From the NCBI GenBank assembly GCA_035623825.1, contig DASPSR010000042.1, forward strand, positions 1-64,000: 64,000 nucleotides of DNA. Direction: 5' to 3'. The position numbers were made by a program. This stretch comes from Nitrospirota bacterium (GTDB taxonomy: Bacteria; Nitrospirota; UBA9217). This document shows, one piece after another, positions 39,001 through 54,000 of this stretch (position 1 is the stretch's first letter; every line of letters begins with the position of its first letter).

Positions 39001-42000
39001 GGTCGTCATCGGTAACGGCGTGTATCAATGAACGTAGGGCCTTATCTCCCGAAATGTTGCCGAGAGCACGGACAACGGCCTTTCTTACATCTGGCTCCTC
39101 GTCCTTGAGCGCAAAGGCAAGAGCATCGGCTGCCTTGTCGGTCGTGAATCTGCCGAGCAGGAGCGCGATGTTCCTGCGCATGGGTGCGTCCCGAGACGTA
39201 AAGTCCTTTACAAGGTCATCGAGGGCGGACTCGTCGCCGATCTCCGCCAGTGCTCGTATTGCCGATTCCTGAACGCTCGGATATTCGTCTGTGAGCACAT
39301 CAAGGAGTGGTTTGACGGCTTTCCGGCTCCTCAAGCGCCCGAGCGCCTCCGCTGCCGCGCTACGCACATGACCGTTCTCGTCCATCAGTAGACCGATAAG
39401 GGGATCTTCAATATCCCGGCCCCCGGCGTCGCCGAGCACCCTCGCCACCGTCCTTCTCACGAGCGCATTATCGTCGGAGAGATAACCCAGCAGAAAAGGC
39501 ACACGGTCTCCGTCTATGTTCCTAAGCGCTTGTGCTATCGGTTCTTCCATGTCCTCATCTTTCAGAAGTGCAAGCAGTTTTTTGATGGAGGTCTCCCTCC
39601 CGGCCCACCCGAGCACCGCGACGGCCGACTTCTGGAGCTCTCCTGTGCTCGTGATGAGCATCTCTTCCAGAAGGTCTACTGCCCGGTCGTTCATGTTGGC
39701 ACGAATAGTCCTTATCATGCGTTCCCGATCATCATGCGTGCTCTTTCGGTATATCGCAGTCAGTGCTACCATAGCGACCTCGCGCACGATTCTAAGCGTA
39801 TCGGCAAGGCCCGCGATGAGCGGCATAAGCGTATTGACATTACCAATCTTGCCGATTGATTCGATTACCGGCTCTCTCAGGCTGCCCCGGCAGAGAGCTG
39901 CTATGAGCGGTCCGAGGGCTCGGTCGTCACCGATTTCTCCCAGAGCCTCGGCAGCGGCATAGTTAAGCCAGCTCTGGTGGTCTCGAGTCAGACAGGCAAG
40001 CAGCGGTTCGACTGCGCGGCGGTCCTTTATCTTGCCAAGCGCTTCGGCTGATGCCACACAGATATTATCATCGGGGTCCTTTGCCAGTACCCCGATCAGG
40101 GCGGGTACGGCCCTTGAATCCCTGATATCTCCGAGGATGTCGACAATAAATTTGCGAACATCTGCATCCGGCGTTTCAAGGGATATAAGCAGGGCATCGA
40201 CAGCTGGGGTGCCGATCTTGACCAGAGCTTCAATCGCCGAGTTCCGCGAACCGGCGTTGTCATCGGCGGAGAGGGACCGGATGAGCCCCTCGATGACATC
40301 ATTGCTGCCGATTGCCACTAGTGCCTCGACTGCCGTCTTCCGGACTCGCCAGTCAGTATCACCCATGGCACTGAAGAGCAGGGGCACGGCATTCCGGCCT
40401 ACGCGGCTAAGATCGACAGCCGCCTCCCGTCGCTCCTCCGCATCGCTATCCTGCAGTTTCTTCCTTAAAAATTCAAGATTCGGCATTGCCCGCCTCCGCC
40501 AGCGCTGAGCGCTCCTGCTGGCTTAAGATCTTGGTTATGTCAAGAAGAATTATAAGCCCGTCGGCCACTTTCCCCATGCCGGTGATGAAATCGCCGCTCG
40601 CTCCCGTGGCCACTTCCGGCGCAGGTTCGATATCTTTTTTTGGAACATGGAGCACTTCGTTCACACCATCCACGACCAGACCGATCAGACCTCTCCCGGT
40701 GCCATTAGCACCTTGGAGGGCGCCCCGCATGATCATCATGCGCATCTTCCGTGGATTGTCGTGAATCGTTGCCAGTGCAAAGCGCTTGCGCAAGTCAATG
40801 ATAGGGATGATGGCTCCGCGCAAATTGATCACACCTTCTATAAACTTCGGCATCCGCGGAAGTGGTGTGATTCTGTGCGGGCGAACGATCTCGGTGATCG
40901 AATTGATCTCCAGCCCGTACACCTCCGGCCCTATGTGGAATGTAACGAGTTGAAGGGTTTCATCCGCAACAACCGCCTGTTTTGCTTTCTTGTCGTTCAT
41001 ATTAAAAGTCTCTCACAATCAACGATAGATGCAAAAAACAATAACGGCTAACAGCAGTCAATATATATCCTTCATCTCCCCGTCTTACATCCTGAATTTC
41101 TGGATCTCATTCTTGAGCGAACCAGCCTGGTCGGCCATAATTTCCACGGCACTGTTGAGCCCAGCAGCCTGACTTGCATTTTCCTTGGCTATTTGCTTGA
41201 TGCGCTCGATTGCCTTTACGATCATATTGCTGCCGGTCTGCACCTCACCTGTCGCTCTGTTCACCAGAGTGATCTTTGCGCTCATGTTCTCGACCGCCGC
41301 CGTGATGTCTTTCCCGGCCTTTGCCTGCCCTTCTGTTGATGTTCTGACAAATCGCGTGATCTCGCTCATTTTCTCGGATGCCCGCGCAATCTGCTCACTG
41401 GCCGATTTCTGCTCATTAGCGGCCTTGGCGATCTGGAGGGTCATCCCGCTGATCCGTTCGACGGCTTCGCTTACCTGCCTGATGCTCCGCACTTGTTCTG
41501 CAGCCGCGCGGTTGATGCTCCTGCTCATGTCACGAGACTGGTCCGCCCGTTCCAGGATCTTTCGAAGTGTCTGACCCGCATCCTTGGAAAGCCGCATTCC
41601 CTCTTCCACGATAGCGACCCCTTCCTGCATGACTCCGGCGGCTACTTTGGATTCTTCCTGCACAGAAGCAATGAGATTGCCGATTTCCTGTGTTGATGCG
41701 GCCGTACGGTTCGATAGGTCGCGTATTTCCGCAGCCACCACCGAAAAACCCTTGCCGTGCTCTCCCGCCTGTGCCGCGAGGATCGCGGCATTCAGGGCAA
41801 GAAGGCCTGTCTGATCCGTAATATCCTCAATGACAGTAAGAATGCTCCCGATACTCTCGACGCGACCGACGAGACGGTTCACCACATCGGCGGTCCGCCG
41901 CGCTGCTGCATCGATTCTGCCCATGCCCTCGATGGTCTTGTCGATAGAGTGCATGCCAAGTTGCTGGGCATCAGAGGCAACCGCCTCCGAAAGAGCAAGA

Positions 42001-51000: not shown

Positions 51001-54000
51001 TGTCGTATGACAGCGCTGACAGGCGGTCCTGCTCGCCAGCGACCAGTCGTAATGAGCCCAGGCATCTGCCGCAAGCATATCCGCATGCTTCGAACTGGCC
51101 CAATCTCTGTTGATGTCGGCATTCTTATGCGGATTGTGGCAGTCGGTACAGACGGTATCGCTCGCAAAATTCATGGCATAACCGGTAATATTATTGCTAT
51201 TTTGACTAGTTCCTGACGCCCCCCAGTTGCCGGGGGTGGCAAAGTGCGTGTCAGTGATAACGTATTGAGTTCCATTGGGGGCAGGTGCCCCTGCTAAATG
51301 GGTCGGCGAAGCATTAAGAGCTCCTGTTGAGGTATCGAGCAGATTATGACAAGCCGTGCACATGACGAATTGTCCAGAGACCGCTACGGCGCCGAAGCTT
51401 GTCCCCGTCGTGTTCGAAAGGAGGGATATCGGCCCGGCCCCGCCGGCATCTGCATGCAGGCTCCCGGGACCGTGGCAAGCCTCGCAGCCGACCACCGGAC
51501 GAGGAACATTCCCCGTGTATCCTGCTGTGAGATTGTTGCTGTCCCCGTCAGGGTCATGACAACTGATGCAGCCTGAGCCGCCTGCCTGGACAAGACCCAC
51601 TGTCGGAACGCCTGCACTGTACAGGTTACCTGCAGGATCGAGATTCCCGTGTTTGCTCATAAGCCAGTCGGCTGTTTCGGTGGTATGACATCCTGCGCAC
51701 CTATTCAGTCCTGCAGTCGTAGTCGCTGCAGAAAGAACGCTTGAAGTCGCCGGCCCGATAGCCGAATCGGACTTGCCGCAACCTCCGAGCATGGCGATAC
51801 ATGCAAGCATGAAAAGAAAAACGAGGACTGTTCTGCTTCCCTTCTTTGTATTCATGGTTCATACCTCCCCTAATGGCTTCACCTGCTGAACCCGGGTTGC
51901 TGAATGAAAGCTCATCACTTTACTCTCCTATTCCGAATTCAGCATGTTTATATCGGCGATCTACGCCCCTACCGCTTTGTGCAAGTCCAGCAGGATGTAG
52001 AGCCTGTCGTCTTTTCGCGCTATCCCCTTTAGGAACTCTGCACCTTGTTCGATGGTCTCCGGTGCAGGACGGACGGCGTCCGGTGAGATCCGTACCACCC
52101 CGGTCACCTGATCCACGAGAATTCCCGCGTTCTCGTCATCTGGGCTTATAATGATAATCCGCGCCTTCTCGTCCCTCACGGCGGGCGGAAGGCCTAGCCG
52201 CCTTCCGAGATCCAGTACTGGCAGGACCGTTCCCCGGATCGATGTCACCCCGATGACATGTGACGGTGAATTGGGGACCATGGTGAGCTCCCTGCTTTTC
52301 AGCACTTCCTGTACATCATCTACGGGCAGGACATACTCTTCACTGCCGAGGCGGAACGAGAGCATCTCGATCTCCTGTGTGTGAATTCCACTTGCCACTC
52401 CTTCTTCAGGCTCCGGCGTGTCCCTTCTTCCGATTTCTTCCACTGCGGCGTGTTTGGCCGCTTCCGGTTGTTTCCCGACAGCTGGAGATGACGGCACAGG
52501 GCTCGCGCTGCCAGAGGGCTTTTCCGTCTGGGCAGGTTGAGCAGGGGCCGTTTCTTCGGTCTCGAGTTTGTTTTGTGTGCGTGTCCACTCCGCTGCCTTT
52601 TTCCGCGCTGCCAAGATATCCATAGGTCGCTAACGCTCCTACCGAAAAAAACTTACAGAGAGCAGAGGACATGGGACATATGGGAAACCATGGCCCCTCT
52701 TCTCTTTGCCTCATGCCGAATGCCCTTTCCGTCCTTCGCCCGCCCTTCTCTCACTATGCTCTCGATGATCTCCTGGTCTATTATCTTGAGGCCCTTGCCG
52801 AAACCTTCAACGAGCGCATTGCCCGCAATGGTGTTGATAATGCGCGGAACGCCTCCTGAACGCTCGAACAAAGCCGTGTTCGCTTCTTCATCAAAGAGCA
52901 GCGTTTCCCTCCCCGCTACCCGGAGCCGGTGCTTCACGTACTCTCGTGTCTCGTCCTCGTCAAGCGGGCCCAGGTGATACTGCATTCCGATCCTCTGCCG
53001 AAGCGCCCTGTACTGGCGTCGGTCGAGCCGCTCCCCGAGCTCTGTCTGGCCGATAAGCAGGATCGCGAGAAGGTTGCGGTCATCGAGCTGGAAATTCGTA
53101 AGCAACCGCAGTTCCTCGAACGTGGCCTTGCCGGAGATAAGCTGCGCTTCGTCAATGATGACCACCGGTCGCTTCCCGGCCTCGAAGAACTCATACAGCT
53201 TTGCATTGATTCCCTCAATGATGCTGTGGCAATCCCGGCTCGAGCACTCCATCTCGAGGCCGAGGGCCACGGTTCTCAGAAGATGTAGCGGCGAAAGCCG
53301 CGGGTTGATTATCAGCATCGGATGAAAGCTCCCGTCCAGCGAATCGATGAGCGCACGGGAAATCATCGTCTTGCCCGTACCGATATCGCCGGTCAACAGG
53401 GCAATGTCCTGGTCCTCTGCCGCAAGCTGTAGCCGGGCGAGGGCCTCGGCATGCTTGGCGCTCTGGTAGAAAAAACGCGGGTCAGGCGTCTTTTTGAACG
53501 GCTTTTCGCTCAGTCCGTAAAATTCTTCATACATAATTTAAGTCCCCGGGCCAGACGACAGGTACTAGATTGAAGCTTTTCTTTTTGCCCGCTTATTCTG
53601 TCTGAAGTCCATTATCTGTTATCTGCCCTCGTTCCTTATTCCCCCGTCTTTGCCTCCGCCCGTGGTCTACTGTCTGCTGACAACGACCGATCTTTTGAGA
53701 GCCCCTTCGATGAGTGATTCAACATCCAGCACGAGCACAACGCCGCGTCTGTCTCCCAGCTCCGTGGCGCCAGCAATGCCCGGTATCTCCGATATCCGCT
53801 TTCCAAGAGGCTTGATGACGATCTCCTGCTGGTCCCGGAGACCGTCAACCATGATCCCCAAGCGGCGCTCTGCGAGACCCACGAGGATGAGGTAGAATGA
53901 GTTGCTGCTGGGCTTCGGGGTCAGTTTGAACGCCTTCGTAAGCCGATAGAGCGGTATCGTGTCGCCACGGATGGCCATCACCTCGCGTGTCTCCACGGTC

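Follow-up and report, generated by a model that had tools for sequence, protein, structure and literature searches.

Results

This report concerns a set of porin-cytochrome genes lying within a chemosensory (che) operon in a 64,000-nucleotide stretch of DNA (positions 1 to 64,000 of contig DASPSR010000042.1, assembly GCA_035623825.1; the whole stretch is referred to as the window) from a Nitrospirota bacterium of the UBA9217 lineage. Every gene between positions 58008 and 34989 is encoded on the minus strand, and all run in one direction. Between the two cheW genes of the operon they encode, in the order of reading, a decahaem lipoprotein (OMC; 49921..51855) of 644 residues with ten CXXCH motifs, an LGGC lipobox and a PF22113 domain, which is presumed to be the outer-surface cytochrome of the conduit; a decahaem cytochrome of the MtrA/DmsE family (48869..49894; TIGR03508) of 341 residues, with a lipoprotein signal, nine CXXCH motifs and one CX3CH motif; an MtrB-like outer-membrane beta-barrel, or porin, of 652 residues (46897..48855); an orphan periplasmic solute-binding protein (SBP; 45960..46889) of family PF04392, which we propose as an adaptor between the conduit and a receptor; a methyl-accepting chemotaxis protein (MCP1; 43870..45963) with an sCache_3-type sensor, a HAMP domain and a long signalling domain; a 197-residue open reading frame (ORF; 43172..43765) holding only a transmembrane segment, a periplasmic domain and another transmembrane segment; and a further chemoreceptor, MCP2 (41085..43172). 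The series is tight: 105 bp separate cheW1 from the OMC gene, 26 bp the latter from mtrA, 13 bp mtrA from the porin gene and 7 bp the porin gene from the SBP gene, which overlaps the MCP1 gene by 4 bp; 104 bp then lead to the 197-residue ORF, which overlaps the MCP2 gene by 1 bp, and 84 bp separate MCP2 from cheW2. A clear Shine-Dalgarno sequence precedes every gene of the cassette, the 197-residue ORF being the sole exception, and the cassette, with a GC content of 0.54-0.59, does not stand out from its flanks (0.51-0.58). A preceding sequence-only reading of this DNA had described seven ORFs in a one-direction series between the cheW genes, with a 7-bp gap, a 4-bp overlap and a 1-bp overlap among them; all seven were found in their places and the three spacings were reproduced.

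The order of genes seen across the window recurs in all ten same-family Nitrospirota regions, which represent ten genera, with the surface cytochrome not found in two of these ten. Among 80 porin loci from public genomes (one genome per species), 28 are embedded among che genes and 52 have no che genes in sight; twelve of the latter have at least 9 kb of sequence on both sides and 35 have at least 3.3 kb downstream. In the che-embedded loci the SBP gene comes after the porin gene wherever this could be judged (25/25), an MCP gene comes after the SBP gene (25/25), and the surface cytochrome is present in 23 of 26. Where che genes are missing, MtrA is encoded ahead of the porin in 44 of 44 loci and the SBP after it in 38 of 42, and an MCP gene directly follows the SBP gene in 22 of 35. 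As to the remaining 13 loci, five encode a second, PhnD-type binding protein together with a sensor histidine kinase, one has an MCP behind an additional MtrC-like cytochrome, one has both binding proteins only, two have the SBP alone, and in four MtrAB is followed by hflX. Since either an MCP or a kinase follows the same MtrAB-SBP unit, the type of the transducer appears to be swapped while MtrAB-SBP stays constant. These stand-alone cassettes are surrounded by unrelated housekeeping genes (clpB, dxs, pheST, hflX), and no quinol dehydrogenase, periplasmic cytochrome or other inner-membrane or periplasmic electron carrier was found alongside them; the surface cytochrome of the window is recognisable in 3 of 30, most of them consisting of MtrA-MtrB without a full MtrC-like partner.

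A second family, represented by genomes G026 and G035, has the order cheW1-MtrA-MtrB-SBP-MCP1-cheW2, and the cassette is merged into the che operon in two families (f1 and f3). The synteny search thus recovered in other genomes the association noticed in the window, namely in ten of ten relatives, in 28 of the 80 public porin loci and in the second family. A one-off rearrangement is ruled out by the ten relatives and the 28 public loci, and a recent horizontal island by the even GC content taken together with conservation. That the genes came together by chance, or by a recent insertion of no functional meaning, is very improbable: the same order in ten genera, in the public loci and in a second family, the uniform composition, the strong Shine-Dalgarno sequences and the short gaps all speak against it. 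We propose that the gene set is a mobile sensory cassette of four to five genes, inserted between cheW1 and the resident receptors of the operon.

Judging from homology and from a fold model, the locus does carry the genes of an Mtr-type outer-membrane conduit, as the sequence-only reading had assumed. The MtrA homolog scores 251.4 bits against TIGR03508 (cut-off 192.2), falls short of the GSU2203 sub-model (245 vs a cut-off of 325), and matches the solved MtrA 6r2q_A with an E-value of 1.2e-42; a profile of 48 sequences matches the same structure at 2.7e-53, in an alignment that covers positions 52-327 of 335 and keeps the haem motifs in register. CX3CH as the first haem motif and a Cys-ending, lipobox-like signal peptide (the lipobox judged by eye) are found in 68 of 70 MtrA orthologs. 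The same 70 orthologs show a strongly conserved segment of about 30 residues, L-K-x-S-x-P-I-x-P-I-K-E-Y-E-K-M-I-A-G-R-L-D-A, ahead of the first haem, and the clade has one additional, nearly invariant Cys at position 123. The barrel is far more diverged: its PF11854 match (27.7 bits, cut-off 23) spans only residues 289-448, it scores 30.9 bits against TIGR03509, far under the cut-off of 240, and a profile of 11 porin orthologs gave no match among PDB sequences at E up to 1. A model built from 30 orthologs (pLDDT 77.3) finds its best fold match in MtrB, 6r2q_B, at an E-value of 7.3e-20 and a TM-score of 0.73/0.73, with 12% identity; the runner-up reaches a TM-score of 0.31.

The decahaem lipoprotein contains an MtrC/MtrF domain II/IV (PF22113, 53.4 bits, cut-off 30), matches none of the solved MtrC, OmcA and MtrF in sequence, and gives a fold model that is too poor to use (pLDDT 47.7, pTM 0.39). 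It had been called OmcB-like; no test speaks for or against this label, and the domain seen by Pfam is of the MtrC/MtrF type. In six stand-alone cassettes (L066, L068, L072, L074, L087, L100) the decahaem protein is replaced, upstream of mtrA, by a lipoprotein of 452-484 residues with six CXXCH motifs. In one genome of the same genus (G001:C6:141843-143795, locus L036) TGA stops break the porin gene into four pieces, and MtrA retains only five CXXCH motifs and has an altered N-terminus; either the conduit is decaying there or a long-read assembly has introduced indel errors.

The SBP belongs to PF04392 (130.3 bits, cut-off 25.9), and its profile matches the solved members 3lft, 3lkv and 6hni with E-values of about 1e-30. 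It is the sole PF04392 protein of the genome and no transporter genes adjoin it. The start-stop overlap of the SBP and MCP genes (4 or 1 bp) is retained in deeply diverged cassettes. The SBP occurs with MtrAB in loci without a transducer (L088, L097, L111), and with MCP1 in genomes that have no conduit (G010, G011); retention with either partner is what one would expect of an adaptor. It also remains downstream of the porin where the transducer is a kinase with a second binding protein of its own (L071, L073, L075, L080, L082).

Concerning the receptors, the sequence-only reading had spoken of chemoreceptors dedicated to the conduit, and of a sensor-only protein between them. Only MCP1 belongs to the cassette, and its orthologs in stand-alone cassettes score 44-48 bits against PF17203. 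MCP2 and the 197-residue ORF correspond to resident receptors of the che backbone, since backbones without the cassette already hold two MCPs; MCP2 is matched best, gap-free over 445 residues, by MCPs from the che clusters of genomes whose cassette stands alone. The 197-residue ORF aligns at 61% identity, over residues 1-169, with the N-terminus of an intact third MCP in the same-genus genome G002, after which the DNA alignment jumps by about 2.3 kb; it is a deletion remnant of a third MCP and not a designed sensor-only protein. Identity to same-genus orthologs is 61% for the remnant, 88% for MCP1 and 81% for MCP2, and a full-length third MCP stands at the position of the ORF in 6 of the 10 same-family regions. 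The opposite state to that of the window is seen in G017 (L019 6884-7126), where MCP2 is cut to its first ~80 codons and the third MCP is whole.

In G042 and G044, two genomes whose cassette stands alone, the 446-residue cytoplasmic domain of the cassette MCP aligns over 409-446 residues with the MCPs of the backbone che cluster, which are its nearest paralogs in the genome and share its length class. Of the four che-cluster MCPs, both of G044 and one of G042 align without gaps, and the second of G042 with four gaps; with most other MCPs of these genomes the alignment is partial or heavily gapped. This fits a cassette receptor that would signal via the che pathway even when it is encoded elsewhere.

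The backbone that hosts the cassette begins with a DUF4388 (PATAN-like) and GAF protein (56863..58008; PF14332, 112.6 bits), which carries an MshEN-type c-di-GMP-binding motif (NF053729, 46.6 bits, cut-off 38). It continues with a CheY-like receiver (CheY1, 55768..56139; PF00072, 95.3 bits); a CheA histidine kinase with Hpt, dimerisation, HATPase and CheW-like domains (53667..55676; Pfam), encoded by one of three cheA genes of the genome; an ExeA-like AAA ATPase (52653..53534; PF13401, 74.9 bits; TIGR03015, 227 bits, under the cut-off of 324.5); and CheW1 (51961..52623; PF01584, 130.1 bits). Beyond the cassette and the resident receptors come CheW2 (40473..41000; PF01584, 123.5 bits), a HEAT-repeat protein (38492..40486; PF13646, 366 bits), and, by Pfam, the CheR methyltransferase (37613..38491), the CheB methylesterase (36398..37489), a GAF-domain protein (35382..36251) and a second CheY-like receiver (CheY2, 34989..35369). 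This is the order that had been read from the sequence, and the Pfam assignments agree with it. A gap of 723 bp (56140-56862) separates the DUF4388 gene from cheY1; in relatives such as G014 the two genes abut, and in the same-genus locus L036 fragments of DUF4388 and cheY are duplicated at this junction. The best sigma-70-like match of the region (11/12) lies on the minus strand at 36389-36361, in the gap between cheB and the GAF gene and upstream of the latter, and the GAF-cheY2 pair may be driven by its own promoter.

The ExeA-like ATPase occupies the same position in Nitrospirota and Desulfobacterota and can serve as a marker of the backbone type. Each of five genomes with a stand-alone cassette encodes its ortholog elsewhere, and the three complete regions of such genomes read DUF4388-cheY-cheA-ATPase-cheW1-MCP-MCP-cheW2-HEAT-cheR-cheB. 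An ortholog (E at most 1e-60) is present in 16 of 151 sampled Desulfobacterota genomes; ten Desulfobacterota regions with the same backbone have cheW1 and cheW2 adjacent or with a cheY between them, none to two MCPs placed after cheW2, and in no case (0/10) a conduit or an SBP. The sequence-only reading had stated that the Geobacter che5-type cluster, which it matched to the flanks, has neither conduit nor MCP at this place, and the ten regions agree with this. According to Tran 2008 the beta group, to which G. sulfurreducens cluster 5 belongs, holds no mcp genes (PMC2577667). Chan 2017 describes GSU2220 as cheW, GSU2221 as the ATPase and GSU2222 as cheA in the setting of EsnB and EsnC (PMC5585712). 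By its gene order the backbone is the Geobacter beta/Esn-type cluster, the link to the GSU genes resting on these papers and on the Desulfobacterota regions. It departs from the beta rule of Tran 2008 in its mcp content, with two MCPs and one remnant in the window and two MCPs in the Nitrospirota versions that have no cassette. NF041028 had no match among 14 control genomes, and a search for the HEAT protein of Myxococcus Che7/Cpc7 gave nothing usable; to judge from published tables, Che8, with two CheW and two CheY, may be closer to our backbone (PMC3945109).

The genome, which is 89.65% complete, has four MCP genes besides the three cheA, several PilB/PilT-type ATPases, one PF04392 protein and one MtrB-like barrel. 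No FlhA (PF00771) was found in it at this completeness, and the che operon is for this reason taken as non-flagellar. Related loci come from uncultured Nitrospirota metagenome-assembled genomes (MAGs) of groundwater and soil.

The conduit is not retained throughout the family. Of its 24 genomes, 22 encode the ATPase and 17 gave a match to the porin, one of the porin matches being a remnant of 30 residues only. In G010 (L148 8316-8494) a scar is left, consisting of the N-terminal 48 codons of the OMC gene, with its lipoprotein signal, and the final 30 porin codons, after which intact SBP and MCP1 genes follow; a single clean deletion has removed OMC-MtrA-MtrB. G011 has cheW1-SBP-MCP1 without a conduit, and in G004, G013, G015 and G016 cheW1 is followed directly by MCP1, with neither conduit nor SBP.

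A possible contact of the SBP with its neighbours was addressed by a three-chain structure prediction, in which SBP residues 24-309 were the partner of MtrA (26-341) and the MCP1 sensor (36-173). The interface score was 0.60 (runs of 0.58, 0.66 and 0.60), the runs share at least 91% of contacts, and the partner pLDDT is at least 89. When the SBP was replaced, the score fell to 0.00 in both controls, and when MtrA was replaced and the MCP1 sensor kept it fell to 0.27, under the mark of 0.32; the drop indicates that the confidence rests on MtrA. Of 157 solved complexes 116 reach the mark, as do 2 of 215 mismatched pairs; both mismatches and only 18 of the solved complexes do so with a score of at most 0.60. 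This calibration set differs from our job, which used its own alignments and three chains. The prediction, which the sequence-only reading had put forward as a way to check its idea, thus weakly supports the SBP docking on MtrA.

Discussion

Linkage of the conduit to a binding protein and a transducer in so many relatives suggests that the conduit may help to sense redox-active material outside the cell. The reading that we place first, tentatively and at somewhat less than an even chance, is that a non-flagellar che operon of the beta/Esn type has received a conduit-SBP-MCP1 cassette whose conduit feeds signalling. The conduit would equilibrate with external redox-active material (Fe/Mn minerals, humics, partner cells and the like); the SBP would dock on MtrA at its periplasmic part and touch the sCache sensor of MCP1 as well, so that the state of the conduit may alter MCP1 signalling. 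MCP1 would share one array with the resident MCPs, CheW1, CheW2 and CheA and tune the phosphorylation of the two CheY proteins, and through the HEAT, DUF4388/c-di-GMP and GAF proteins the pathway would steer surface behaviour and not swimming. It speaks for this reading that the cheW-ATPase-cheA trio of the same backbone type in G. sulfurreducens (GSU2220-2222, EsnB/EsnC) is required on electrodes and dispensable on Fe(III) oxide (PMC5585712). The sequence-only reading had left a choice between a redox state and a ligand or shuttle passing via the conduit as the thing relayed. Relay of a redox state through the SBP to the MCP may occur; the predicted complex supports it weakly, and the relatives that have lost the conduit and keep intact SBP and/or MCP1 weaken it. 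A ligand or shuttle is unlikely to pass, given that MtrA fills the barrel of the solved Mtr complex. In a more general form, which we hold with slightly more reserve, MtrAB, with or without the surface cytochrome, would be an antenna, and an SBP-fold adaptor would gate either an MCP or a histidine kinase, making up a modular electroreceptor cassette that would be found through Nitrospirota and in some Desulfobacterota-labelled MAGs.

A number of our own observations weigh against the conduit being an input. Some concern the locus itself: scans of 34500-54000 for promoters and terminators stayed at chance level (12 vs 10.0 expected and 18 vs 17.5, respectively) and are uninformative on transcription units, which leaves a single transcript unsupported; no CXXCH is present in MCP1; and the alignment of 53 SBP sequences has no conserved Cys, His or Met, that is, no evident site for a redox cofactor. 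Others come from the gains and losses described above. MCP1 stays intact and conserved in the genomes without a conduit, directly after cheW1 in four of them, with the SBP in G011 and behind the scar in G010, so it works conduit-free. The ratio of sensor to cytoplasmic identity is 0.63-0.88 without and 0.68-0.92 with the conduit, and no relaxed selection on the sensor was seen in the conduit-less relatives. Four loci (L058, L059, L076, L078) have MtrAB without the SBP. The predicted complex, too, scores weakly, gives no interface, and places MtrA outside its barrel, MtrB being left out, so that the SBP could be docking on a surface buried in vivo.

Several of these points would be at home in a respiratory explanation, in which the conduit is cargo, a working route for extracellular electron transfer in reduction or in the oxidation of Fe(II), a soluble small molecule is what the SBP-MCP1 pair detects, in the usual manner of binding-protein-dependent receptors, and the linkage is one of co-expression, as with receptors placed beside catabolic operons. 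The barrel is the sole MtrB-like one of the genome and could simply be its respiratory conduit; SBP-MCP1, or MCP1 alone, outlives the loss of the conduit with an unrelaxed sensor domain; the SBP has no cofactor motif, and a score of 0.27 persists in the control from which MtrA was removed. The ligands of the three solved PF04392 proteins are L-Trp, L-Tyr or L-Phe (PMC10443332, PMC6816091). The cassette SBPs differ from these binders in two motifs that the three have in common, T-D-P being changed to Y/F-D-P in 52 of 53 cassette sequences and G-x-S-D to G-I-S-S, with the final S in 41 of 53. Co-expression alone would also leave it unexplained that the SBP stays by MtrAB without a transducer, or with a kinase and a second binding protein, and that the cassettes come without inner-membrane or periplasmic electron carriers; the fall of the predicted score from 0.60 to 0.27 on removal of MtrA adds a weak argument of the same kind. 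We regard the respiratory explanation as quite possible, and rank it slightly behind the antenna model.

The opposite direction of control can be imagined as well, with the conduit as an output: the che pathway would govern assembly, placement or activity of the conduit, and the SBP would help to assemble or stabilise the lipidated MtrA. What is reported for Geobacter is compatible with it. Knock-outs of cluster 5 alter the extracellular matrix, which Tran 2008 mentions as unpublished (PMC2577667), and deletions of esnB and esnC abolish growth on electrodes and leave growth on Fe(III) oxide unaffected (PMC5585712). The lipobox of MtrA is conserved, as is the N-terminal segment ahead of its first haem, and the weakly predicted contact of the SBP is with MtrA. 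We consider this explanation unlikely, since the only signalling gene of stand-alone cassettes encodes an input protein, be it a receptor or a sensor kinase, translational coupling joins the SBP to the MCP and not to MtrA or MtrB, and the four loci with MtrAB alone show the SBP to be dispensable for assembly.

If the antenna model is true, an electroreceptor would be hard-wired into the type of chemosensory pathway that Geobacter needs for electrode colonisation. How bacteria detect insoluble electron acceptors and donors is of general significance: genetics in Shewanella and Geobacter ties Mtr or Esn components to behaviour and has so far pointed to no receptor for the solid itself. The conserved cassette, linking a haem wire across the outer membrane with a transporter-less SBP and a swappable transducer, offers a concrete set of proteins with which the sensing of solids can be tested. 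The lineage consists of uncultured, Wood-Ljungdahl-type Nitrospirota of aquifers and soils, for which the finding of mineral surfaces may be central to the lifestyle.

A search of the literature, supplements being outside its reach, found neither an MtrAB-SBP-receptor cassette nor a che operon with a conduit in it described, and the MAG papers, in their available text, merely list mtr genes (PMC10386581, PMC12930757). The closest published idea appears to be the congregation of Shewanella at insoluble acceptors, which needs mtrBC/omcA, the Cache-domain MCP SO_2240 and CheA-3, and for which the authors propose a sensing role of outer-membrane cytochromes (PMC5789149). Unlike those of the window, the congregation genes are unlinked, the proposed signal is energy taxis via the proton motive force, and there is no dedicated conduit-SBP-receptor cassette (PMC5789149).

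Among the conduits themselves, the nearest known system is Shewanella MtrCAB (6R2Q), with which the locus shares a decahaem MtrA homolog that aligns over nearly the full length, an MtrB-like barrel at a TM-score of 0.73 and a decahaem lipoprotein gene directly upstream. It departs from MtrCAB in its lipidated MtrA, the Shewanella protein being soluble, periplasmic and without a lipid anchor, in the first haem motif (CX3CH, in Shewanella CXXCH), in the 12% identity of the barrel, in a surface cytochrome without sequence match to solved MtrC, and in that the conduit genes travel with an SBP and a receptor inside a che operon. Most stand-alone cassettes, being MtrA-MtrB without a full MtrC-like partner, resemble the two-gene conduits MtoAB and PioAB. 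The operons of these encode periplasmic or inner-membrane carriers (MtoD/CymA, PioC), and the cassettes bear an SBP and a signal transducer instead.

On the side of signalling, the backbone resembles G. sulfurreducens che cluster 5 in the order cheA-ATPase-cheW and in having two cheW, HEAT, cheR, cheB, GAF and two cheY genes, and this type of backbone is tied genetically, through EsnB/EsnC, to extracellular electron transfer (PMC5585712). The Geobacter beta clusters differ in having no mcp (PMC2577667), and the receptor EsnA is encoded elsewhere and senses in the cytoplasm (PMC5585712). The SBP-MCP1 pair, finally, is reminiscent of binding-protein-dependent transducers such as MBP-Tar and PstS-CtpL (PMC10443332), in that a periplasmic binding protein is encoded beside a transmembrane transducer and translationally coupled to it. 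It is unlike such binding-protein-dependent pairs in that the SBP is a PF04392 protein without a transporter, tied to the porin-cytochrome pair at least as tightly as to the receptor, and in that the kinase variant of the cassette has a second binding protein too. LuxP-LuxQ and TorT-TorS are further examples of transducers that depend on a binding protein.

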